From Dehalococcoidia bacterium (GTDB lineage: Bacteria; Chloroflexota; Dehalococcoidia; Lucifugimonadales; HRBIN23), in the NCBI GenBank assembly GCA_025060295.1, contig JANXCH010000011.1:87904-151903 (forward strand): a DNA stretch of 64,000 bases, written 5' to 3'. Below are positions 1 through 54,139 of the stretch, piece by piece (the first letter of the stretch is position 1; every line of letters starts with the position of its first letter). The position numbers and the translations under genes were made by a program. The notes beneath the pieces are model-generated. The model saw nothing but the letters and a program-made list of their open reading frames with translations, ran no database searches and was not told where the DNA came from.

Positions 1-673
1 GGAAGTCGGTATTGCCCCCGAAGTTCAACTGGTAGGTGCGCTCCAGCCTCACCCCCCGCTGGCGGAACAGATGGGTGAGCGCCCGATGCACAATGGTCGC
101 CCCCACCTGGGACTTAATGTCGTCCCCAATGATGGGCAGACCTCGGTCGCGGAAGCGCTTCTGCCAATAGCGCTCCCGCCCAATGAACACCGGGATGCAG
201 TTCACAAAGGCGCACCCCGCCTGCAACACCTGCTCCACATACCACTTGGTCGCCTCCTCCGACCCCACGGGCAGGTAGTTCACCACCACATGGCACTCCC
301 GTTCCCGCAAGATGTTCACAATATCGGCCGTAGAGCCCGGGGCCTTCTGCACCAGGGGCGCCACATACTTGCCGATACCATCGTGGGTCATCCCCCGCTC
401 CACAATGACACCCGTCGGGGGCACATCGGCGAACTTGATGGTGTTATTGGGCGGGGTAAAAATGGCCTCTGCCAGGTCCTTCCCCACCTTGTTGCGGTCA
501 ATATCAAAGGCCGCCACGAAGCGGATGTCCCCTATGGCGTAGCCCCCCAGCACAGGGTGCATCAGCCCGGGGATGAAAGCGTGGGGTGGAGCGTTACGGT
601 AGTGGTACACCCCCTGCACCAGGGAAGAGGCGCAGTTGCCCACCCCAATGATAGCCACATTGATGGTGCCCAT
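1..673 (-). CDS. ino1: myo-inositol-1-phosphate (inositol-3-phosphate) synthase, N-terminal ~224 codons; the gene runs off the left edge
   Basis: Not in the ORF track because there is no stop in the window. The reverse complement from ATG 673..671 reads [28 protein letters not shown]...[16 protein letters not shown]...[17 protein letters not shown]...[17 protein letters not shown]...[10 protein letters not shown], which is the bacterial Ino1 signature. A GAGGGGGGAG SD lies just upstream. This call supersedes the + strand ORF 71..727. Confidence 0.9.
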
Positions 674-1633: not shown

Positions 1634-2776
1634 CTACCAGTTGGTGAAGGCCCCATCCCGCCGCCGCAGGCGCGGCGGATAGCCCGGCGTATAGGCGCGG
1701 GCGTAGGCCAGGCACGCCTCCTCGTTGAACTCCAGCCCCAAGCCCGGCCGCTCCGGCTTCAGCACATACCCATCCTCCCAGGGGATTTGCACGGGGAACA
1801 CATCGGGCAAAAATGTGCCCGGCTTCACGGGCAACTCCAACACCCCCACATTGGTGGACGCCAGGCACAGGTGGGCCGCCGCCGCCGAACTCACCGGCCC
1901 CAGGGGATTGTGCGGCACGATGTCTATGTAATGGGTCTCGCACCAGTGGGTAACCTTAAGGGCCTCCGTAATGCCCCCCACGATGCACAGGTCAATGCGG
2001 GCATACTGAATCAGTTCCTCCTCAATGACCTCCCGAAAAGCCCACTTGCCCGCCCATTGCTCCCCGGCGGCGATGGGCACTGCCACGTGGCGCGCCAGGG
2101 TGCGGTAACTGGCGGGGTTCTCCGAGCGCAGGGGATCCTCCACGAAGAAGGGACGGAAGGGCTCCAACTCCCGACACAGGCGAATGGCATAGGCCGTATC
2201 CAGGCGCGTGTGCACATCCAGGCAGATCTCAATCTCGTCCCCCACCGTTTCCCGCACGGCGGCCACCTGCTGCACCGCCATGCGCACCGAGGCCGACGGC
2301 TCCAACACCCCATCGGGGTAGTGGGGGAGCCCCCACCGCACGAACTTCCACCCCTCCGCCACCGTGCGCCGGCAACTGGCCAGCAGGCTCTCCGTATCCG
2401 TCTCGGCGTTGTGGGGATAGCACACCACCTTATCCCGCACCGGCCCGCCCAAGAGTTTATACACGGGCAGGCCCAGCGCTTTCCCCTTGATATCCCACAG
2501 GGCGATGTCTATGGCGCTCAGGGCGGCACAGACCACCTTATCGGCGGGGAAGAAGCCCGCGCGGAACATCCGTTGCCACAGGCGCTCGGTGCTGAAGGGG
2601 TCCTCCCCCAGGAGCAACTCCTCCGTCAGACGACGCACCGCCTGCTCTAGGGAGCCTGCCCAATAGGGCACCCCTGCCTCCCCCACTCCGTAGATGCCCT
2701 CGTCCGTCTCCACTTTCACGAAGAAGAAGTGGCGCTGGGCGCGCACCGGGAAGGACTTCACCGCCGTGATCTTCAT
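1634..2776 (-). CDS. enolase-superfamily acid-sugar dehydratase, paralog 1 (galactonate dehydratase-like, mandelate racemase/muconate lactonizing family)
   Basis: 380 aa. The sequence reads MKITAVKSFPV...FFFVKVETDEGIYGVGEAG...SAIDIALWDIKGKALGLPVYKLLGG...CLDVHTRLD...FFVEDP...DLCIVGGITE...PHNPLGPV. A GGGAGG SD is present. Confidence 0.85.
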   Translation of the reverse strand: MKITAVKSFPVRAQRHFFFVKVETDEGIYGVGEAGVPYWAGSLEQAVRRLTEELLLGEDPFSTERLWQRMFRAGFFPADKVVCAALSAIDIALWDIKGKALGLPVYKLLGGPVRDKVVCYPHNAETDTESLLASCRRTVAEGWKFVRWGLPHYPDGVLEPSASVRMAVQQVAAVRETVGDEIEICLDVHTRLDTAYAIRLCRELEPFRPFFVEDPLRSENPASYRTLARHVAVPIAAGEQWAGKWAFREVIEEELIQYARIDLCIVGGITEALKVTHWCETHYIDIVPHNPLGPVSSAAAAHLCLASTNVGVLELPVKPGTFLPDVFPVQIPWEDGYVLKPERPGLGLEFNEEACLAYARAYTPGYPPRLRRRDGAFTNW

Positions 2777-8807: not shown

Positions 8808-10619
8808 ATGCAGAGGACACGGTGGTCGCTCATCCTCATCGGCGTGCTGGGGTTGGCCCTCTTCCTGGTGGGGGCGTGTCGGCCGGCGGCAGCGCCCACC
8901 CCCACCCCTACACGGGCACCCGCCCCCGCCCCCGCCGTCGCCGTTACCCCCACCCCCACACCCATCCCGCCCACGCCCACCCCACCCCCCGTCATCACCC
9001 CCACCGGCACCCTTACCGTCGCCGTCGCCACGGTGAATGTGCCCGCTGGGACTCCCCGCTTCTGCACCGCCGGGTGCGCCGAGAACGTCTACCTCGCCAG
9101 TGTGATGGAGACCCTCTTCCGCCCCGCCTCGGGCGACATCGCCGGCGAGAAGCCCGAAGTGCCCATCCTGGCCGAATCCTGGACTATGGATACCCAGGTG
9201 CCCCCGCGCTGGCTGGACTTCAAACTGCGCCCGGGAATCCAGTTCCACAGAGGCTATGGGGAGATGACCGCCGAGGATGTGGCCTTCTCCTTCAACGACG
9301 CCAACTCCCGCACCACCCCCGAAAGCATCCACGGCCAGGCCGGCGACTTCTACCCCCTCATCAAAAAGATGGAGCCCCTGGACAAGTACACCGTCCGCCT
9401 CTGGTATGAGACCTTTGACAGCCGCGGCCTTCGCCACCGCTTCAGCCTCTTCTGGCAGACCGCTGGTGTGACCAGCAAGAAGGTGTTTGACGAACTGGGC
9501 CCCGAGCGGATGCGCACCGTGTTCATCGGCACCGGCCCCTTCCAGATGGTGGAATACACCCAGAACAAGGGCATCTTTATGGAGGCGGTGGATCGCCACT
9601 GGCGGCAGACGGCCCGCTTCAAGACCGTGCGCATCCTGGAGGTGCCCGAGACGGCCACCCGCCGCGCCATGGCCCTGACGGGTGAGGCGGATATCGTCCA
9701 GGCAGCCCTGAAGGATGTGCCCGACCTGGTGCGGGCAGGTCTGAAGACTGCCGAAACAGGCAACTACGACCAGATGGTTATCTACTTCACCGGCAACTAT
9801 TGGGAGAAGCGCCACCCCATCACGGGCGAGCCCCTCAACCGCAAACTGGACTTGACCAAGCCCTGGGTCTCCCCCAACCCCGACGATGACCCCGCCCGCG
9901 CCGAGCAGGCCCGCAAAATCCGTTGGGCACTGGCTTTGACCATTGACCGTGAGGCGCTGAATCAGGCCATCCTGCAGGGCTTGGGCCGGCCCGTGCACAT
10001 CGGCTATGTGTCCGTGGCCCACAAGGAGTTCCAAGAGAAATGGAAGGTGCCCTACGACCCCGCCCGCGCCCGCCAGCTGCTGCGGGAGGCCGGGGGCTGG
10101 CCCGCTGGCGTCAACATGGAGATGCACTGCTTTACCCCCGCTATCTGGAGCGAACTGTGTGAGGCCATCGCTAGCGTCTGGCTGACCGAGTTGGGCATCA
10201 AGACCGACATTGAGAAGGTGGCCTACACGGTCTACCGCCCAGGCCTGGTGCAGCGCACCACCTCCAAGCCCATCATCTTCCCAGGCGACGATGGCAAGTC
10301 CGCCTTCCCCTATCGCTGGGCCAAGGGCTTCACCAACAGCGCCATCAGTTCGGGTGGGTTCGGCGTGGGCATGGAGATTCCCAAGATGACCGAGTTCTAC
10401 CTCAAGGCTGCCGCTGAGATAGATCCCCTCAAGCAGAAGCAAATTGTGGACCAGTTCCACGACTACTCCTACCACTGGATGCTGATGCCCGGCACCATCG
10501 AGGCTCCCCTCTTGCTTATCTATAACCCGCGCCGCATCGCCTCCTGGGACATCCTGCCCAACGCCAACGGCAACCTGGGGGGCCTGAACAACTTGGAGAG
10601 CGTGGTGCCCGCCCGCTAG
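8808..10619 (+). CDS. ABC transporter substrate-binding lipoprotein, family 5 (peptide/nickel/oligosaccharide type)
   Basis: 603 aa. A signal peptide with a lipobox-like LFLVGAC is followed by a Pro/Thr/Ala linker (APTPTPTRAPAPAPAVAVTPTPTPIPPTPTPPP), then an SBP_bac_5-like body. A GGGAGGGAAGG SD is present. Confidence 0.85.
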   Translation: MQRTRWSLILIGVLGLALFLVGACRPAAAPTPTPTRAPAPAPAVAVTPTPTPIPPTPTPPPVITPTGTLTVAVATVNVPAGTPRFCTAGCAENVYLASVMETLFRPASGDIAGEKPEVPILAESWTMDTQVPPRWLDFKLRPGIQFHRGYGEMTAEDVAFSFNDANSRTTPESIHGQAGDFYPLIKKMEPLDKYTVRLWYETFDSRGLRHRFSLFWQTAGVTSKKVFDELGPERMRTVFIGTGPFQMVEYTQNKGIFMEAVDRHWRQTARFKTVRILEVPETATRRAMALTGEADIVQAALKDVPDLVRAGLKTAETGNYDQMVIYFTGNYWEKRHPITGEPLNRKLDLTKPWVSPNPDDDPARAEQARKIRWALALTIDREALNQAILQGLGRPVHIGYVSVAHKEFQEKWKVPYDPARARQLLREAGGWPAGVNMEMHCFTPAIWSELCEAIASVWLTELGIKTDIEKVAYTVYRPGLVQRTTSKPIIFPGDDGKSAFPYRWAKGFTNSAISSGGFGVGMEIPKMTEFYLKAAAEIDPLKQKQIVDQFHDYSYHWMLMPGTIEAPLLLIYNPRRIASWDILPNANGNLGGLNNLESVVPAR

Positions 10620-25895: not shown

Positions 25896-25925
25896 TTGAC
25901 AACCCCGGGGGGATGCGCCTATAGT
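25896..25925 (+). promoter_or_regulatory. 23S rRNA promoter
   Basis: TTGACA (25896..25901), an 18-nt spacer, then TATAGT (25920..25925), ~210 nt upstream of mature 23S. Confidence 0.65.
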
Positions 25926-26061: not shown

Positions 26062-26074
26062 GCACCTTAACAAG
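26062..26074 (+). promoter_or_regulatory. boxA-like antitermination motif in the 23S leader
   Basis: GCACCTTAACAAG resembles the rrn boxA core (..CTTTAACAA..). The identical 13-mer occurs in the 16S leader at 52421..52409 on the minus strand. Confidence 0.5.
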
Positions 26075-26133: not shown

Positions 26134-29086
<2,953 letters not shown>

Positions 29087-29129
29087 CACTGCAGGGCCGA
29101 GACCCCACGCCCCCCCTCTTCCCTCCCAT

Positions 29130-29204
29130 CGCGGGGTGGAGCAGCGGCAGCTCGTCGGGCTCATAACCCGAAGGTCGGTGGTTCGAGTCCACCCCCCGCT
29201 ACCA
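29130..29204 (+). tRNA. initiator tRNA-fMet (CAT), CCA encoded
   Basis: Sequence CGCGGGGTGGAGCAGCGGCAGCTCGTCGGGCTCATAACCCGAAGGTCGGTGGTTCGAGTCCACCCCCCGCTACCA. It has a CAT anticodon, three G-C pairs closing the anticodon stem, and an unpaired 1-72 position (C1/U72), all initiator hallmarks. Confidence 0.9.
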
Positions 29205-48619: not shown

Positions 48620-49240
48620 ATGCGCCTGCTCCTGGTCCGCCACGGCGAGACCCCCGCTAACCGGGACGGGCGGGTGCAGGGCCACAGCCCCGAAGGGCTC
48701 ACCCCGCTGGGGCAGCACCAGGCCCACAGCGCCGCCCGTCTGCTCAAGGGCTATGCCCCCACCGCCCTTTATACCAGCCCTTTGCCCCGTGCCCGGCAGA
48801 CCGCCCGCATCATCGCCCAGCATTTGGGATTGGAGCCCCTCCCTTTGCCCGCCTTGGCCGAGATGCACCTGGGAGAGGTGGACGGCCTCACGGTGGCCCA
48901 GCTGCAGCAGCGCTACCCCGCCTTTATGAGCGCATGGCGAGCCGATCCCGCCCGTGCTGTTGCCCCCGGGGGTGAAAGCCTCCAGGAGGTTCAGGAGCGG
49001 GCGTGGCACGCCCTGGAGGACCTCCTGCACCGCCATCCCCACGAGACCGTGGTGGCCGTGAGCCACAACTTCACCATCCTGGCCCTGCTGACCCGCGCCC
49101 TGGGCCTCCCCCTTCAGGGCTTCCGCCACTTCCACCTGGACCTGGGGGGCATTGTGGTTTTGGCCCGTGGGCGGGAGGGACAGTGGGTGCTGGAGGCCTT
49201 CAACCTACGGGATACGGCGGCCCCTCCCCATGAGGCCTGA
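48620..49240 (+). CDS. histidine phosphatase (phosphoglycerate mutase-like) family protein
   Basis: Reads MRLLLVRHGETPANRDGRVQG (the RHG motif)...VSHNF. It starts 1 nt after the upstream stop. The track start at 48521 overlaps the CNNM gene. Confidence 0.85.
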   Translation: MRLLLVRHGETPANRDGRVQGHSPEGLTPLGQHQAHSAARLLKGYAPTALYTSPLPRARQTARIIAQHLGLEPLPLPALAEMHLGEVDGLTVAQLQQRYPAFMSAWRADPARAVAPGGESLQEVQERAWHALEDLLHRHPHETVVAVSHNFTILALLTRALGLPLQGFRHFHLDLGGIVVLARGREGQWVLEAFNLRDTAAPPHEA

Positions 49241-50684
49241 CCCGTCCGATTCCCTGGTGCGGAAGGTGGCCCGCTCCCTGGAGGGGGCGGGCATGGGGGG
49301 AAAAGCCCTCCTCGTGGCCGTCTCCGGCGGGCCCGATTCCCTGGCATTGCTCTACGCCTTGCACACTTTAGGCGAGAGGTATGCCCTGCGCCTGTTCGTG
49401 GGCACCGTAGACCACCGTTTGCGCCCCACCAGCGCCCAGGAGGCCCAAGTGGTGGCCCAGCACGCCCAGGCCCTGGGCCTCCCCTGCCAGGTGCTCACCG
49501 CCGATGTGCGCTCCTACCAGCGCGCCCATCGCCTCACCCTGGAGCAGGCGGCGCGGGAGGTGCGCTATACTCTGCTGGCTCAGACCCTTCGTGCGCGAGG
49601 GGCTGATGCCCTCACCCTGGGCCACACCGCCACCGACCAGGCGGAAACGCTCCTTCTGCACATGGCACGGGGGGCAGGGCTGACAGGCCTGCGGGGGATG
49701 CGTGTTCTTTCCCCCCTGCCCACCCCGGTCGGCCCTGTTCAAGCCTTTCGCCCCCTGTTGGAGTGCCACCGCAGGGAAACCGAGGCCTTCTGCCAACGGT
49801 GGGGGCTGACCCCCTGTGTGGACGAAAGCAATCGGGACCTGCGCTTTGCCCGCAACCGGGTGCGCTGGGGCGTGCTCCCGGCTCTGCGCGCCCTCAACCC
49901 CCAGGTAGAGGAGGCCCTGGTGCGCCTGGCCCGCACGGCGGAGCAGGTGCTGGACTACTTAGACTCCCAGGTCGCCCGCGTGCGGGAGGAGGTGGTATCT
50001 CCCGTGCCCTCTGGGGTGGGGGTGGACACCACCCGCTGGCGGGATCTGCACCCCGCCTTGCAACGGCACCTCCTCCGCACCCTGTGGGGAGAGGTGGCCG
50101 GCACCCCGGAGGGCCTCACCCAGGCCCATGTCGAGAGCATGGTTACCCTTTTGGGAGGCCCAGCGGGGCGGCGGCTGGCCTTACCGAGGGGCATCGTCCT
50201 GGAGTGCGGGTATGGGCGGGCGTGGCTTGTGCGGAGGGATGTGCCCTGCCCCTTGCCCACCGTGGCGGGGGAGGTTATCCTCCGCATCCCCGGCACGACC
50301 CCCCTGGACGGCTGGGAGGTGCACACCCGTTGCGTGGAGCCCCCCGTGCCCTATCGGGAGGCGGGCCCCCTGCAGGCCTACTTAGATGCCGATGCCGTCG
50401 GGATGACTTTGCGCCTGCGGACGCGCCGGCCGGGCGACCGCTTCTGGCCTTTGGGGATGCCTGGCCCCAAGCGCCTGCACGATTTCCTGGTGGATGCCCA
50501 CATTCCGCGGCGGTGGCGGGAGCGGTTAGCGCTTCTGGAGGGGCGGGAGGGCATTGCGTGGGTGCTCGGCGTGCGCATCGCCCATTGGGCGCGGGTAACG
50601 CCGCAGACGCGGCGGGTGCTGGTGGCGGAGGCGCGCCCGGCACAGGAGACGGCTTCCCCCCGGGGTGAAGCCGAAGGGGAATAA
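49230..50684 (+). CDS. tilS: tRNA(Ile)-lysidine synthetase
   Basis: Reads MRPDPSDSLV...LLVAVSGGPDSLALL (the PP-loop SGGxDS)...GHTATDQAET. It overlaps the upstream gene by 11 nt. Confidence 0.88.
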   Translation: MRPDPSDSLVRKVARSLEGAGMGGKALLVAVSGGPDSLALLYALHTLGERYALRLFVGTVDHRLRPTSAQEAQVVAQHAQALGLPCQVLTADVRSYQRAHRLTLEQAAREVRYTLLAQTLRARGADALTLGHTATDQAETLLLHMARGAGLTGLRGMRVLSPLPTPVGPVQAFRPLLECHRRETEAFCQRWGLTPCVDESNRDLRFARNRVRWGVLPALRALNPQVEEALVRLARTAEQVLDYLDSQVARVREEVVSPVPSGVGVDTTRWRDLHPALQRHLLRTLWGEVAGTPEGLTQAHVESMVTLLGGPAGRRLALPRGIVLECGYGRAWLVRRDVPCPLPTVAGEVILRIPGTTPLDGWEVHTRCVEPPVPYREAGPLQAYLDADAVGMTLRLRTRRPGDRFWPLGMPGPKRLHDFLVDAHIPRRWRERLALLEGREGIAWVLGVRIAHWARVTPQTRRVLVAEARPAQETASPRGEAEGE

Positions 50685-50879: not shown

Positions 50880-52380
<1,501 letters not shown>

Positions 52381-52390
52381 AGGAACCTTA

Positions 52391-52424
52391 CCTTCCTCCC
52401 GTTCTCCGCTTGTTAAGGTGCCCC
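52391..52424 (-). other. 5' half of the 16S processing stem, containing the boxA-like GCACCTTAACAAG (52421..52409)
   Basis: See the complementary 3' half at 50724..50757. The boxA-like 13-mer is identical to that in the 23S leader. Confidence 0.7.
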
Positions 52425-52460
52425 GTCGGGTCAGGGGGCTGTCCCCCCAACCCATCGCTC

Positions 52461-52489
52461 ATTATAGGCCACCCCACGCCCCCTGTCAA
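52461..52489 (-). promoter_or_regulatory. 16S rRNA promoter P1
   Basis: The minus strand has a perfect consensus: TTGACA (52489..52484), a 17-nt spacer, then TATAAT (52466..52461), ~75 nt upstream of mature 16S. Confidence 0.75.
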
Positions 52490-52579
52490 GGGGTGCCCCC
52501 CGGGAATTTCCCCGACACCAAACGGGGGGCGAGCCCCCGCAGAGACCCGCCCCCCTTGCCCATCTACCAGCGCACGGCT

Positions 52580-52612
52580 TTACTTCTTCTTGGGAGCGGG
52601 CTTGCCCTTCAC
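52580..52612 (-). CDS. micro-ORF A, 10 codons: MKGKPAPKKK
   Basis: GTG AAG GGC AAG CCC GCT CCC AAG AAG AAG TAA lies 8 nt downstream of AGAAAGGGGGTGA (52630..52618). That element is complementary to the 16S 3' end at 12 of 13 positions. A paralogous copy lies at 52944..52976. Confidence 0.45.
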   Translation of the reverse strand: MKGKPAPKKK

Positions 52613-52659
52613 CTGCGTCACCCCCTTTCTGTGCGGTGGTGGGCTCCCCTACGGACACC

Positions 52660-52693
52660 AAAAACGGCCCCCGACGCCTCACCGTCGGCGGGC
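52660..52693 (-). terminator. leader hairpin plus U-run upstream of micro-ORF A (attenuator or sRNA terminator)
   Basis: The minus strand reads GGCCCGCCGAC-GGTGAGGC-GTCGGGGGCC followed by GTTTTT. Confidence 0.5.
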
Positions 52694-52766
52694 CGTGCCG
52701 TAGGCGTTACCAAGACCCTGGGGGACGATGCGTCGTCCATCTTCTCCCGCAACCTGCCCTGTTTTT

Positions 52767-52794
52767 ACAGTAGCAAACAGACCCTCTTTGTCAA
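52767..52794 (-). promoter_or_regulatory. promoter P2 (cassette A)
   Basis: The minus strand reads TTGACA (52794..52789), a 16-nt spacer, then TACTGT (52772..52767) with an extended -10 TG (TGCTACTGT). An A/T-rich GATAAAAATTG lies upstream of the -35. Confidence 0.5.
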
Positions 52795-52943
52795 GGGGTT
52801 TGGGGCGCAATTTTTATCCCCTCCACGATTTGGCCGAATTTCCCCCGCACATCAGCAGGGGCTCCTCCCCACACCCCCACAAAAGGGAGACGGGCCCCGT
52901 TCCCAGGACCCGCCCCCTGAACGATCTCCCAGCGGGGATGGTG

Positions 52944-52976
52944 TTACTTCTTCTTGGGCTCGGGCTTACCCTTCAC
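52944..52976 (-). CDS. micro-ORF B, 10 codons: MKGKPEPKKK
   Basis: GTG AAG GGT AAG CCC GAG CCC AAG AAG AAG TAA lies 8 nt downstream of GGAGAAAGGGGGTGAT (52996..52981). Confidence 0.45.
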   Translation of the reverse strand: MKGKPEPKKK

Positions 52977-53017
52977 GACAATCACCCCCTTTCTCCACGC
53001 TGGGCATGGCCAACGGC

Positions 53018-53050
53018 AAAAAAAGAACCCCCGACCTCGGTGGAGGCCGG
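53018..53050 (-). terminator. leader hairpin plus U-run upstream of micro-ORF B
   Basis: The minus strand reads CCGGCCTC-CACC-GAGGTCGG, then GGGTTC, then TTTTTTT. The U-run is 6 nt from the stem, so this is less canonical than copy A. Confidence 0.4.
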
Positions 53051-53132
53051 CGGCCCCAAGCGCTGGCGTGTGGGACCACGACGCGGCGAAGAGCCTTCGT
53101 CCATCCCGTGCCCAATCAGTTTGCAATTCCCT

Positions 53133-53160
53133 ACTATAGCACGGCCCCGCCCCTTGTCAA
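53133..53160 (-). promoter_or_regulatory. promoter P3 (cassette B)
   Basis: The minus strand reads TTGACA (53160..53155), a 16-nt spacer, then TATAGT (53138..53133) with an extended -10 TG (TGCTATAGT). The -35 sits inside the perfect palindrome CCCCTTGACAAGGGG. Confidence 0.55.
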
Positions 53161-53200
53161 GGGGGCCCAGCCCCCTGGCTAGCCCCCCGGGAGCACCCTG

Positions 53201-54139
53201 CTATCTTTTCCCCACAACACCCCACACCCCACCTAGAATAAGGGCACCCCCCACCAGGGTGGTGGAGGACGGCGTCTCCCCCAGCACCAGCCATGCCAAA
53301 ACGGTGGCCACCACCGGCTCCGTCATGACCACCGCCGACACCACCACCGCCCGCAAGCGCCCCAGGGTCCAGTTGAGCAGAGTGTGCCCCACCATTTGGG
53401 GGAGCAGCGCCACCAACAGCAGGAAGCCCAACGTCCGCAATGTGAAGCCCCACACGGGCGCACCCCCCAGCAGGCTGGCCCCCACCAGCACCAGCGCCGC
53501 TGTCCCATACACCGGCCCAATGTAGGCCAGCAAGGGCAGGTGGGGGCGCACCGCCCGGCCAATGGTGTAATAGACCGCCACGCCCACCGCCCCCAGAAGG
53601 GCCAACCCATCCCCCAGCAGCTCCCTCCGCCCCAGGCGGAAGTCGCCCCATCCCAACACCAGCCCCCCCACCAGGGCCACCCCTATCCCCACGAGCACAC
53701 GCCTCCCCGGCCGCTCCCCCAGGAACACCCACCCCAACACCGCCACCAAAAGGGGATTAGATGTTACGATGACCACCGAACTGGCTACGGTAGTGTAGTC
53801 CAGGGAGGCGATCCAAAAGGCAAAATGCACGGCTAACGCCACGCCCGAAAGGACGAGTAGCCCCCCTGTGCGCCAGCCCATGTGCAGCAGGACACGCCCG
53901 TGCAGGGCCCACGCCAGGGGCAGAAACGCCAGCGCCGCCACCCCTGTCCTCCAGGTGGAGACGGTCAGAGCAGGGGCATCGGCCAAGCGAATGAGCACCG
54001 CCGCGCTGGAGACCGCCAGCACCCCCGCCACCAACGCCCCATAGGTAGCAGCATCCCGATGCCCAGGGGGGCCGCGAACCTCGGAGGAAACGGAAATGCC
54101 CACGCCGGCCTCTACCCTTCGGCGGGCTGGCTGAACCAA
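53201..54139 (-). CDS. DMT-superfamily (EamA-like) transporter; start uncertain
   Basis: 312 aa with ~10 hydrophobic segments and duplicated EamA-type halves. The listed start overlaps the upstream gene by 28 nt. Confidence 0.75.
   Translation of the reverse strand: MVQPARRRVEAGVGISVSSEVRGPPGHRDAATYGALVAGVLAVSSAAVLIRLADAPALTVSTWRTGVAALAFLPLAWALHGRVLLHMGWRTGGLLVLSGVALAVHFAFWIASLDYTTVASSVVIVTSNPLLVAVLGWVFLGERPGRRVLVGIGVALVGGLVLGWGDFRLGRRELLGDGLALLGAVGVAVYYTIGRAVRPHLPLLAYIGPVYGTAALVLVGASLLGGAPVWGFTLRTLGFLLLVALLPQMVGHTLLNWTLGRLRAVVVSAVVMTEPVVATVLAWLVLGETPSSTTLVGGALILGGVWGVVGKR

Follow-up and report, generated by a model that had tools for sequence, protein, structure and literature searches.

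Attenuation at the pyrBI and pyrE operons of Enterobacteria relies on a leader ORF that extends into or through a terminator with a long U tract, and a ribosome moving close behind the polymerase stops formation of the hairpin. The mccA gene, encoding the microcin C precursor, comprises only seven codons; it stands alone, with a strong Shine-Dalgarno (SD) sequence and a hairpin terminator, and the peptide is itself the product. To our knowledge, there are few precedents for stand-alone functional peptides of ten residues. As stated in excerpts of one report, terminators can work efficiently when placed less than ~100 bp into a coding region, and are repressed close behind a translating ribosome (PMC4824070); excerpts of a second describe that a tightly coupled ribosome blocks formation of the terminator hairpin (PMC5021804). 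The leader of Salmonella mgtCBR, as presented in the excerpted part of a third, contains proline codons and two very short ORFs, mgtM and mgtP, each linked to a stem-loop or a terminator (PMC3641672).

Here we analyze a 64,000-nucleotide stretch of DNA from an uncultured member of the Dehalococcoidia (the window), in which the minus strand at 53160-52515, 5' of the 16S rRNA gene, is occupied by two diverged copies (modules A and B) of one unit. Each consists, in this order, of a promoter, a leader, a GC hairpin followed by U5-7 (T1), a 13-nt SD, a 10-codon ORF (ORF2) and a second hairpin (T2). The module is unlike anything annotated or deposited in Rfam, Pfam or NCBIfam. In the reading that we favor, and to which we assign a probability of roughly one half, the modules are not appendages of the rRNA promoter: each forms an autonomous micro-operon that is controlled by a ribosome-coupled attenuator and yields a polycationic decapeptide.

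Results

Architecture of the modules and predicted promoters

A first-pass annotation of the window had described an organized two-copy module on the minus strand with a second GC hairpin and a motif ending each copy, and all elements that it listed were recovered (Table 1). It had missed a further element, an ATG-initiated leader ORF (uORF1) that begins within the sequence GATGGAC of either leader.

Table 1. Predicted elements of modules A and B and flanking features (positions within the window)
Feature	Positions	Strand	Description
EamA/DMT transporter gene	end at 53201		upstream neighbor
Promoter P3 (module A)	53133..53160	-	TTGACA-16-TGcTATAGT; 11/12 match with TG in promoter scan; predicted activity
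P3 -35	53160-53155	-	TTGACA; TGcTATAGT ends at 53133
uORF1-A	52982..53104	-	40-codon leader ORF (MDEGSSPRRGPT...GERG) from the ORF list; starts at ATG of GATGGAC; stop = TGA inside SD-A
T1-A	53018..53057	-	14 bp hairpin, -24.7 kcal/mol, then U7; inside uORF1-A
SD-A	52982..52994	-	AGAAAGGGGGTGA, 13 nt; pairs with 16S 3' end
ORF2-A	52944..52976	-	GTG AAG GGT AAG CCC GAG CCC AAG AAG AAG TAA = MKGKPEPKKK
T2-A	52880..52918	-	15-bp GC hairpin, -29.0 kcal/mol, then CUUUUG
Motif	52836..52846	-	GGGGGAAATTC, in the T2-A/P2 interval
Promoter P2 (module B)	52767..52794	-	TTGACA-16-TGcTACTGT; read from sequence; putative
P2 -35	52794-52789	-	TTGACA; TGcTACTGT ends at 52767
uORF1-B	52618..52740	-	40-codon leader ORF (MDDASSPRVLV...TERG); stop = TGA inside SD-B
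T1-B	52660..52694	-	11 bp hairpin, -24.0 kcal/mol, then GUUUUU
SD-B	52618..52630	-	AGAAAGGGGGTGA
ORF2-B	52580..52612	-	GTG AAG GGC AAG CCC GCT CCC AAG AAG AAG TAA = MKGKPAPKKK
T2-B	52515..52555	-	14-bp GC hairpin, -32.1 kcal/mol, weak tail GUUUGGUGU
Motif	52503..52513	-	GGGGAAATTCC, 13 nt 5' of P1 -35
16S promoter P1	52461..52489	-	TTGACA-17-TATAAT; 12/12 match in scan; context, outside the module
boxA-like element	52420-52409	-	CACCTTAACAAG; only downstream of P1
16S rRNA gene	52383-50883	-	

Both modules had been credited with strong promoters, an assessment that holds for P3 but not for the -10 element of P2: TACTGT agrees with the consensus at 3 of 6 positions, and P2 was missed by the promoter scan. 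Its form is nevertheless kept in the corresponding B copy of a relative (L001, see below), which has TTGACA-16-TGtTACTCT (TG-N-TACTNT) although the promoter spacer has diverged, and the -35 TTGACA, preceded by CCC, is invariant in each of the six homologous modules. The same relative carries a similar sequence, GGGGAACTTCCC, at the position equivalent to the GGGGGAAATTC motif.

Tandem rRNA promoters are common, and with three near-consensus promoters in the same orientation less than 700 bp from the 16S gene it might be argued that P2 and P3 are merely additional rRNA promoters whose transcripts run straight into 16S. This is extremely improbable: each of the two promoters is followed by two stable terminator-like hairpins, the boxA-like element occurs solely downstream of P1, and away from rRNA genes, too, the modules are conserved as whole units. 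In this lineage the rRNA genes are unlinked; a single 16S and a single 23S gene lie in the window, and the region 5' of the 23S gene lacks module copies. The first-pass annotation had itself named this explanation among the outcomes that would refute its proposal; it is largely refuted by the loci L001 and L011.

Homologous modules and their genomic context

The pattern search in relatives proposed along with the initial description did recover homologues of the SD and micro-ORF. Units with an identical set of parts were found in a further Dehalococcoidia MAG (L001, a tandem of an E-type followed by an A-type module) and in two metagenome contig families (L011, identical to L021, and L012, identical to L013 and L022), and thus span at least three organisms. 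Both scans of sequence collections required the SD and/or the peptide, and since the genome scan demanded a TAA stop, copies of the L011/L012 type would be missed by it. No extra copies were detected by nhmmer in the window or in the 26 loci scanned.

The neighbors differ between loci: EamA in the window; genes for enoyl-CoA hydratase and thioesterase; M20 peptidase, HAD-IB and SerRS; and acyl-CoA dehydrogenase. At L001 the tandem pair lies between the enoyl-CoA hydratase gene and the convergent thioesterase gene, with neither rRNA nor any downstream gene on the same strand, while the L011 copy precedes the HAD-IB/SerRS genes. A second 16S-adjacent module is found in L022, where the 16S gene is 94% identical to that of the window and the flanking TilS 71%; as this is the orthologous locus of a relative, both adjacencies represent a single evolutionary event. 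The proposed check whether homologues lie next to rrs thus turns out positive for the window orthologue L022 and negative for L001 and L011, and the earlier idea of an element linked to rRNA transcription fares poorly. A functional link to rrs is weak, because the adjacency is one inherited arrangement that is absent at two other loci. When TilS homologues were used to reach orthologous 16S loci, no further copies came to light: in close relatives the contig breaks off at TilS, presumably where it meets the 16S repeat, in HR23 and in relatives further removed TilS has no 16S next to it, and the module profile did not match the TilS loci L027 and L032.

At three of four loci, nonetheless, the modules are followed on the same strand by translation genes, namely 16S (window, L022) and HAD-IB plus SerRS (L011). 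This would suit a translation-sensing leader for these downstream genes, in which the two short ORFs would each control a terminator, the peptides themselves would be irrelevant, and read-through from the strong module promoters would boost downstream expression depending on the supply of ribosomes or charged tRNA. A tandem attenuator with two short ORFs has a precedent in the excerpted account of the mgtCBR leader (PMC3641672). However, L001 holds both modules intact and the only downstream gene is convergent, module A precedes module B and not a gene, and both 16S cases trace back to one inherited locus. A pure sensor would, in addition, need neither an exactly conserved peptide nor a conserved E/A pair. 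If the modules are autonomous, the proximity to translation genes at three of four loci is to be taken as history or coincidence.

The Shine-Dalgarno sequence and the decapeptide ORF

The combined SD and ORF pattern occurs twice in the window and in none of 100 shuffles. Because the 16S 3' end reads GGATCACCTCCTTTCT, the 13-mer pairs with it at 12 Watson-Crick positions plus one G.U, in line with the 12 of 13 positions originally counted. The calculated duplexes of -23.7 (A) and -21.1 (B) kcal/mol rank first and third among the 5,858 start-like triplets of the window (median -5.8). The start codon, previously placed 8 nt past the SD, lies 5 nt after the 13-mer; 8 nt is obtained only when counting from the G-run.

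In all pairwise module comparisons the SD is identical at 12-13 of 13 positions, and the spacer to the GTG, with an identity of 0-4 out of 5, has a length of always exactly 5 nt. ORF2 identity amounts to 27-33 over 33-36 nt, in a set of homologues that is a biased sample for codons 1-5 since the scans required the SD and/or the peptide, and conservation stops right after the stop codon. Each of the changes GGT/GGC/GGG, GAG/GAA, CCC/CCG and TAA/TAG either is synonymous or preserves the stop; E/A is the sole replacement and a single codon the sole indel. The L001 orthologue of ORF2-A differs by one change, GAG to GAA, and the B copy of L001 equals ORF2-B exactly, whereas GGG and a TAG stop occur in both L011 and L012, the former also having CCG and an extra AAG codon. 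The substitutions respect codon phase, and the sense frame is better conserved than its co-wobble antisense counterpart. Homologues, codon-phased substitutions, a free spacer of fixed length and conservation ending at the stop codon together bear out the proposal of selection on a translated SD plus micro-ORF. As a side observation, the codon GCT, rare at 66-70% GC, is fixed in all A-type copies of ORF2, a hint of constraint at the RNA level.

The decapeptide comprises five Lys, two Pro, one Gly and one Glu or Ala. It is without a hydrophobic stretch, and a type I toxin or membrane micro-protein was rejected on this ground.

The leader ORF

The invariant GATGGAC holds the ATG of a leader ORF starting with MD[EDS][GAD]SSP[RS]. 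Across homologues, third positions of codons 2-8 vary in 7 of 7 cases and first and second positions in 4 of 14 (p = 0.0028, or p = 0.0085 once three frames are allowed for, with low statistical power given a sample of just six different module sequences, drawn from a small set of related organisms, about three or four in number). Ser-Ser-Pro-Arg is recoded between the modules, TCG TCC CCC AGG in one and TCT TCG CCG CGT in the other, and the Ser, Pro and Arg residues are kept via different codons across copies. The co-wobble antisense frame is, again, less conserved, and in L011 and L012 it is interrupted by a stop. Only 41-50 nt separate the ATG from the beginning of T1, and the uORF1 frame runs into or through T1 in all six copies, with the stop inside T1 in L011 and past it in the other five. 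In four of six copies uORF1 stops at a UGA within the SD, 5 nt before the GUG of ORF2. Conservation is restricted to the first eight codons; the ORF is variable in length and in its stop, and L011 and the B copy of L001 differ in frame. Measured against leader ORFs of the pyrBI type, uORF1 thus has an invariant ATG, three-periodic substitution and a sense frame more conserved than its antisense, but its own SD is weak (-4.4 to -8.5 kcal/mol).

Hairpins, leader and RNA structure

The six copies share one T1 architecture, consisting of a lower stem GGCCC/GGGCC, a bulge and an upper stem, and the U-run 3' of it is kept in all six. Pairing in T1 and T2 is preserved through compensatory changes, in T1 from G-C to A-U (window A versus L001 A) and from G-C to U-A (window B versus L001 B). 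The GC hairpin with U-run at which the leader had been proposed to end is therefore genuinely terminator-like, with a covarying stem. T2 is present as a 13-18 bp hairpin in every homologue, at ~7 to ~31 nt from the ORF2 stop as read from the alignments; its sequences are unrelated and its tails weaker than the U5-7 of T1.

The tail of T2 is poor or absent in window B, L011 and L012, the last modules before translation genes, as would be expected of a sensing leader. In window B the ORF2 codons CCC-GCU-CCC can, furthermore, pair with the 5' arm of T2 (-22.6 kcal/mol, reached by 3% of shuffles). As a general antiterminator this pairing was rejected: it beats shuffles only in window B and L001 A, and the fraction of shuffles reaching the observed value is 0.17 in window A, 0.37 in L012 and 0.99 in L011. 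The variable distance from the stop codon to T2 also speaks against a sensing leader. Considering the genomic context and these pairings, we regard the sensing leader as rather unlikely.

A sequence of promoter, ~60 nt, terminator, SD and ORF is also the classic layout of a riboswitch, and the leader might bind a ligand or, through the conserved GAUGGAC(G/U)A, a protein that decides between termination at T1 and read-through, with uORF1 remaining untranslated, as its weak SD might suggest. A ligand aptamer is disfavored because the identity of the 5' leader is too low (28/58 between A and B copies, 23-33/58 between lineages). No conserved aptamer was found in the 5' leader; apart from T1 there is no covarying helix, the hairpin H1 lacking clean covariation, Rfam gives no match even at E <= 10, and the variation is three-periodic in the ATG frame. 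A helix occluding the SD was rejected as well, since the predicted SD partners differ in every copy. We hence consider a riboswitch or protein-binding leader highly unlikely, and the structured leader of the earlier description, if meant as riboswitch-like, turns out to carry an ORF instead.

More weight is due to a small RNA as the main product, either the ~105-nt RNA from promoter to T1 or the whole RNA from promoter to T2, which would act in trans or bind the 30S subunit via the 13-nt anti-anti-SD, the ORFs being secondary (dual-function) or incidental. Such an RNA would be consistent with the textbook U5-7 tail at T1 in six of six copies next to weaker T2 tails, with the invariant GAUGGAC motif, the fixed GCT codon and the very high non-coding identity of the B copies. 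In these, the 27-nt linker between T1 and SD is identical at 27 of 27 positions in the window and L001, which suggests RNA-level constraints beyond the attenuator model. Both ORFs, however, show three-periodic substitution, and the free sequence but fixed length of the SD-GTG spacer and the loss of conservation after the stop are hallmarks of translation. No complementary target for GAUGGACGA exists in the window except in the modules themselves, Rfam gives no match, and no conserved overall fold was found beyond T1 and T2. On balance we judge the small RNA to be unlikely as the main product, and prefer the attenuated decapeptide operon.

Several other possibilities were rejected. No conserved alternative (antiterminator) pairing emerged from consensus or single-sequence folds. 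A -1 frameshift on U7 fusing uORF1 to ORF2 would fit the register of three copies, but L001 A and the B copies of both the window and L001 have a closed -1 frame. An antisense gene, the frame of which is open in six copies, is less conserved than the sense strand and interrupted in L011 and L012. Mimicry of rRNA by the leader was dismissed, its similarity to the 16S and 23S genes of the window being limited to chance matches (8-11 nt exact, 12-15 nt with one mismatch; all E >= 0.22).

Database and literature searches

Matches to Rfam at gathering score were confined to rRNA and tRNA in the window, and other than 16S none was obtained in L001 or the metagenome loci; searching 52300-53300 at E <= 10 returned only chance matches well below threshold. 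Longer MKGKP-initial peptides and concatenated decapeptides had no match in Pfam or NCBIfam, ten residues being below the length limit of profile and structure searches and the NCBIfam query an artificial concatenation. In the protein collection no gene is on record over the decapeptide ORF, and an exact look-up of three window proteins, with starts as predicted here, gave no record. Protein searches with the 254-aa antisense ORF and with every open frame of the six modules joined into a 2,366-aa query were without match at E <= 0.01, viral contigs contained no match to the SD+MKGKP pattern, and plasmids none in blastn (distant mode). Literature on Lys/Pro micro-peptides, small proteins of Chloroflexota and new ribosomal proteins yielded nothing relevant.

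Discussion

Most likely, as judged from the sequences, the module makes a ten-residue Lys/Pro peptide under a ribosome-dependent stop signal. We propose that transcription begins at a near-consensus promoter of the sigma-70 type and that uORF1 would come first on the RNA, ~20 nt in, with an N-terminus, MD[E/D/S][G/A/D]SSP[R/S], kept at the amino-acid level and a frame entering or crossing T1. With no ribosome close behind RNA polymerase, T1 would fold and a ~105-nt RNA would be released; upon prompt initiation at uORF1, a ribosome trailing the polymerase would occupy the 5' arm of T1 and transcription would go on, a coupling-dependent attenuation of the pyrBI type. The read-through RNA would bear the 13-nt SD and the 10-codon ORF2. 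As the UGA of uORF1 resides inside the SD, 5 nt from the GUG, in four of six copies, ORF2 might be translated by re-initiation besides direct binding of 30S subunits. The product would be the polycation fMet-Lys-Gly-Lys-Pro-(Glu/Ala)-Pro-Lys-Lys-Lys, apparently maintained in two paralogous forms, E and A, and T2 would end or stabilize the transcript. As a guess, the decapeptide may serve as a nucleic-acid- or ribosome-binding polycation.

Since T1 falls within the first 50-90 nt of uORF1, read-through would hinge on the speed at which free ribosomes load and catch up with the polymerase. Thus, it might be speculated that the modules are a sensor of ribosome capacity wired to ribosome synthesis, which we regard as quite improbable. 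The output would then be read-through via the weak-tailed T2 into 16S, or a decapeptide acting on ribosomes or the rrs promoter, and in either case rRNA and ribosome production would be subject to feedback that is encoded in cis and coupled to translation, in a lineage with unlinked rRNA genes. A module that gates 16S transcription would be relevant to the old question of how cells adjust ribosome synthesis to their translational capacity.

The ORF2 gene, if its peptide is made, would rank with the shortest stand-alone genes conserved in bacteria that are known to us, a mini-gene with its own predicted promoter, attenuator and terminator, in two maintained paralogues, that is invisible to standard annotation. 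The metagenome matches suggest that tandem Lys/Pro micro-ORFs with very strong SDs may form a class that recurs and has gone unstudied. The module would also provide a compact natural case of an intrinsic terminator early in a leader ORF, in which control of termination by ribosome loading becomes directly testable against a thermophilic Chloroflexota background.

With pyrBI-type attenuators the modules share a leader ORF overlapping T1 in all copies and a U5-7 tail. In contrast, the regulated cistron has only 10 codons, there are no pyrimidine genes nearby and no sequence homology, a U-rich pause region was not found upstream of T1, and no regulated biosynthetic operon follows, the neighbors differing at every locus. 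An attenuator of the trp type was rejected: uORF1 reads through T1, Ser-Ser provides the only candidate codons, and no alternative pairing is conserved. Similar to the mgtCBR leader, the modules combine two very short ORFs, each with a hairpin, and proline codons; that leader always precedes its operon, while the modules are stand-alone tandem units without a constant downstream gene and without conserved antiterminator pairings. Dual-function small RNAs (SgrS/SgrT, RNAIII/hld, SR1/SR1P) are likewise short transcripts with their own promoter and terminator that encode a small peptide; compared with these, the module encodes a far shorter peptide and has two ORFs and an internal terminator, and neither a base-pairing target nor a seed was found. 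In mccA, a stand-alone ORF of about ten codons or fewer with a strong SD is likewise followed by a hairpin. A minigene akin to that of microcin C was rejected, since the four loci lack genes for an MccB-type adenylyltransferase, modification or export and the peptide ends in Lys and not in Asn. Finally, the decapeptide is two to four times shorter than Thx, bS22, bL36 and eL41, with no similarity detectable by the concatenated NCBIfam query, but like them it is short, highly basic and easily missed by annotation, and its two copies here adjoin rrs.

Two mini-gene modules upstream of the 16S rRNA gene

On the minus strand, the region between the EamA/DMT transporter gene and the complete 16S rRNA gene consists of one module in two copies, A and B, each comprising a promoter, a leader, a GC hairpin with a U-run (T1), a Shine-Dalgarno (SD) sequence, a 10-codon reading frame (ORF2) and a second hairpin (T2), with the perfect-consensus 16S promoter P1 past module B. 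The two-module mini-gene layout proposed in the first-pass annotation was confirmed with small corrections: the GTG of ORF2 lies 5 nt, not 8 nt, past the 13-mer SD, and of the two promoters described as strong both have TTGACA, but the -10 element of P2 (module B) is weak by consensus. The SD-plus-ORF pattern matched twice in the window and never in 100 shuffles. When the 20 nt upstream of all 5,858 ATG/GTG/TTG triplets in the window were paired with the 16S tail (3' end ...GGATCACCTCCTTTCT), the two mini-ORFs ranked first and third (-23.7 and -21.1 kcal/mol; window-wide median -5.8, 0.1st percentile -18.5 kcal/mol). The mini-ORF observation is thus confirmed by both the shuffle counts and the SD ranks.

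Features of the module region and of related loci
Feature	Position	Strand	Remark
EamA/DMT transporter gene	ends at 53201		upstream neighbour of modules
Module A promoter (P3)	53160-53133	-	TTGACA-16-TGcTATAGT
Module A T1	53057-53018	-	hairpin + U7 (U7 at 53024-53018)
Module A SD	52994-52982	-	AGAAAGGGGGTGA
Module A ORF2	52976-52944	-	MKGKPEPKKK (E-type)
Module A T2	52918-52880	-	hairpin
Module B promoter (P2)	52794-52767	-	TTGACA-16-TGcTACTGT
Module B T1	52694-52660	-	hairpin + U5
Module B T1-SD linker	52659-52631	-	27 nt
Module B SD	52630-52618	-	AGAAAGGGGGTGA
Module B ORF2	52612-52580	-	MKGKPAPKKK (A-type)
Module B T2	52555-52515	-	hairpin
Half-palindromic motif	52846-52836 and 52513-52503	-	GGGGAAATTC(C)
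Motif variant, L001	3093-3083	-	GGGGAACTTCCC
P1, 16S promoter	52489-52461	-	perfect consensus
boxA-like, 16S leader	52420-52409	-	CACCTTAACAAG
16S rRNA gene	52383-50883	-	complete; Rfam
TilS gene, window	49152-50684	+	convergent with 16S
TilS gene, L022	3836-5401	-	convergent with 16S
23S promoter	TTGACA 25896-25901, TATAGT 25920-25925	+	near-consensus
boxA-like, 23S leader	26063-26074	+	CACCTTAACAAG, identical to 16S-leader copy
23S gene	26134-29088	+	Rfam
tRNA-Met	29130-29204	+	directly 3' of 23S
Antisense ORF	52418-53182	+	254 aa
Antisense ORF	52728-53525	+	265 aa
L014 micro-ORFs	2095-2136 and 2178-2219		MKGKPTPKPGPKK x2
L002 micro-ORFs	264-290 and 328-414		MKGKPKPK then MFKKPGTPPGKPGPGPAKPGAPPRPPKK
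L005 micro-ORFs	9439-9465 and 9553-9612		MAKKPKPR then MKGKPGKPGPGKPSTPPKK
L004/L015 micro-ORF	L004 about 4856	-	MKGKPKKPGGGKPKPC

The boxA-like element occurs downstream of the own promoters of the 16S and 23S genes and is absent from the modules. These rRNA genes are unlinked, ~22 kb apart on opposite strands, and a 5S rRNA was not detected at the Rfam gathering score within the whole 64 kb. The half-palindromic motif, which stands between each T2 and the promoter after it, 16S P1 included, may be a protein-binding site; a stricter form of the pattern has only one match in the window versus 0.11 expected. The long antisense ORFs over the modules were rejected as spurious, as they lack homologues among 5.8 billion proteins and are expected at 66% GC.

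Homologous modules and conservation of ORF2

One genome per GTDB species was scanned with a peptide-degenerate pattern that required a TAA stop, so that copies ending in TAG would be missed. A single other genome matched, a Dehalococcoidia MAG (L001), where two modules are again in tandem, E-type first and A-type second, and are clearly orthologous to window A and B. A scan of metagenome contigs with a pattern demanding just the SD core and MKGKP yielded two more module types with full leader, both with a TAG stop: L011 (= L021), encoding MKGKPEPKKKK, and L012 (= L013 = L022), encoding MKGKPAPKKK. Homologues of the kind that the first-pass annotation proposed to search for are therefore found in L001 and two metagenome families, with E-type and A-type copies both present in every lineage seen. 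The sample comprises only six distinct modules from some three or four related organisms, and the patterns used to find them already presupposed the SD and some of the peptide residues; a profile built from these six modules detected no further copies in the window or the gathered loci.

In pairwise comparisons, 12-13/13 positions of the SD and 27-33 of 33-36 positions of ORF2 are identical, against 0-4/5 in the spacer between them, which is always exactly 5 nt long, and similarity stops directly past the ORF2 stop codon. None of the differences GGT/GGC/GGG, GAG/GAA, CCC/CCG and TAA/TAG changes a residue or removes a stop; beyond them there is only an extra in-frame AAG codon and Glu/Ala (GAG/GCT), the sole replacement. 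The antisense frame sharing the wobble positions is open, less conserved and shows Leu/Phe changes. Codons 1-5 were constrained by the search patterns and are not independent evidence, as opposed to the remaining ORF2, the stop and the spacer behaviour. Read from the sequences, this pattern is the mark of a translation-initiation region and a reading frame under selection, in line with the earlier suggestion of selection on a translated peptide.

A reading frame in the leader

A second frame, uORF1, was missed in the first-pass annotation. The invariant GATGGAC holds an ATG ~20 nt from the predicted transcription start, and the frame opens in every copy: 40 codons in window A (MDEGSSPRR...), 41 in L001 A (MDSDSSPSS...), 35 in L012 and 16 in L011 (both MDEGSSPRQ...), 40 in window B (MDDASSPRV...) and 31 in L001 B (MDDASHPP...). 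Within codons 2-8, which lie outside every search pattern, third positions vary at 7/7 and first and second positions at 4/14 (hypergeometric p = 0.0028; 0.0085 allowing for three frames), and residues are kept by different codons, namely Ser (TCT/TCC/TCG), Pro (all four CCN) and Arg (CGT/AGG). The co-wobble antisense frame is less conserved, with a stop in L011 and L012. Past codon 8 the peptide is not conserved, and the uORF1 SD is weak (-4.4 to -8.5 kcal/mol). T1 starts 41-50 nt past the ATG; uORF1 ends inside the T1 5' arm in L011, 8 nt beyond the U-run in L001 B and, in the four other copies, at a TGA that lies in the SD, with 5 nt left to the GTG of ORF2. The run of U that follows T1 (U7 or U6A) stands in the X_XXY_YYZ register of uORF1 in three copies, window A, L001 A and L012, and a -1 shift would reach ORF2 through an open frame in window A and L012. 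Programmed frameshifting at this tract was rejected because L001 A and both B copies (window and L001) have a closed -1 frame.

Hairpins T1 and T2

T1 is built alike in 6/6 copies: GGCCC pairs with GGGCC in the lower stem, a 5' bulge comes next, and the upper stem spans 5-8 bp. The whole hairpin has 10-14 bp and -19 to -25 kcal/mol, and U5-U7 adjoins it directly. Compensatory exchanges alter the upper stem from window A to L001 A (CCGGCCUC/GAGGUCGG to CCAACCUC/GGGGUUGG) and from window B to L001 B (CCGACG/CGUCGG to CCGACU/AGUCGG). The compensatory changes looked for in the leader were accordingly found in T1, but no other helix besides T1 and T2 is convincingly conserved among the six modules: a consensus pairing of the post-T1 segment with the ORF2 start, with covariation at the Gly wobble base (G.U, C-G, G-C), is broken in 1/6 copies, and predicted SD-pairing partners differ in every copy. 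A riboswitch or protein-controlled leader is improbable given the low leader conservation and the lack of an Rfam match.

Window B and L001 B share a 100% identical T1-SD linker (T1, 35/38); the A copies are more diverged (linker 19/24, T1 30/40). The identical B linker may reflect either extra RNA-level constraint or recent exchange. Together with the textbook T1 it would suit a mainly non-coding or dual-function sRNA, which we consider unlikely in view of the coding-type substitution in both uORF1 and ORF2 and since neither a target within the window nor a conserved fold besides T1 and T2 was found.

T2 (13-18 bp, -27 to -41 kcal/mol) differs in sequence in each copy, and its U tail is good after A modules only; window B, L001 B, L011 and L012 have a weak tail or none. 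These weak tails, the gene contexts described below and the good ORF2:T2 antiterminator pairing of window B would fit a tandem-attenuator leader feeding downstream translation genes; the L001 locus and the lack of this pairing in window A, L011 and L012 make that unlikely.

Relation to the 16S rRNA gene

A 16S gene also lies downstream of the L022/L013 module, in the same orientation; its start is 487 nt away from the ORF2 stop codon, and ~350 nt separate its own promoter from the T2 hairpin. As this 16S is 94.0% identical to that of the window and the TilS proteins encoded convergently share 71% amino-acid identity, L022/L013 is the orthologous locus of a relative, and the adjacency represents one evolutionary event. 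The TilS of 'bacterium HR23' (L027) is 76% identical to that of the window and is followed by a short-chain dehydrogenase gene, not 16S; in other close relatives the contig ends just beyond TilS. The window TilS itself has a 100% identical counterpart among NCBI proteins, from a Dehalococcoidia bacterium. The L001 pair is flanked by an enoyl-CoA hydratase gene in divergent and a YbgC-type thioesterase gene in convergent orientation, with no rRNA within the 8 kb examined, the L011 module lies upstream of HAD-IB hydrolase and seryl-tRNA synthetase genes, and the window 23S gene has no module upstream. Proximity of homologues to rrs thus holds for L022/L013 but not for L001 and L011, and the functional tie to rrs suspected earlier is not upheld. 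The differing loci rather indicate that the unit, which brings a promoter and terminators of its own, changes place and is maintained without regard to rrs. That the modules are plain extra rRNA promoters is highly improbable, as they contain terminators and occur at non-rRNA loci.

Proposed mechanism and comparison with known systems

We put the probability at about one half that each module is a micro-operon with a ribosome-coupled attenuator. The strong promoter would start transcription, and a ribosome would have to engage uORF1 quickly, because T1 falls within its first 50-90 nt. According to published work in E. coli, a terminator in the opening ~100 bp of a coding region can work efficiently, terminators close behind a translating ribosome are repressed (PMC4824070), and tight coupling keeps the terminator hairpin from forming (PMC5021804). 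Read-through RNA would expose ORF2 behind the strongest SD of the window, re-initiation at ORF2 might also follow where uORF1 ends at the UGA inside the SD, and the putative product would be a +4/+5 decapeptide. The sequences themselves show the conservation, the covariation and the periodicity; use of the promoters, termination, coupling, re-initiation and the peptide with its role are inferred.

The metagenome scan also brought up unrelated contigs on which other tiny Lys/Pro/Gly ORFs, frequently two in tandem and with a terminator downstream, stand behind strong SDs (L014, L002, L005, L004); the second ORFs of L002 and L005 share this composition though not pattern-selected. These loci are without leader, uORF1 and T1, and homology to the modules is not demonstrable. 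Such ORFs may represent a wider class of polycationic micro-peptides that has escaped annotation.

No fitting family for the module exists in Rfam, Pfam or NCBIfam, as the first-pass annotation had surmised. Thx, bS22 and bL36 are all much longer than its putative peptide. A stand-alone ~10-codon ORF with SD and hairpin recalls mccA, but no maturation genes lie near the modules. The closest working likeness is pyrBI-type coupling attenuation, and the module also resembles the two-ORF mgtCBR leader (PMC3641672). The module is nevertheless not a member of either system, having no homology, constant downstream operon, defined regulatory codons or pause sites, and would instead be classed as a leader-ORF-attenuated small-protein gene.
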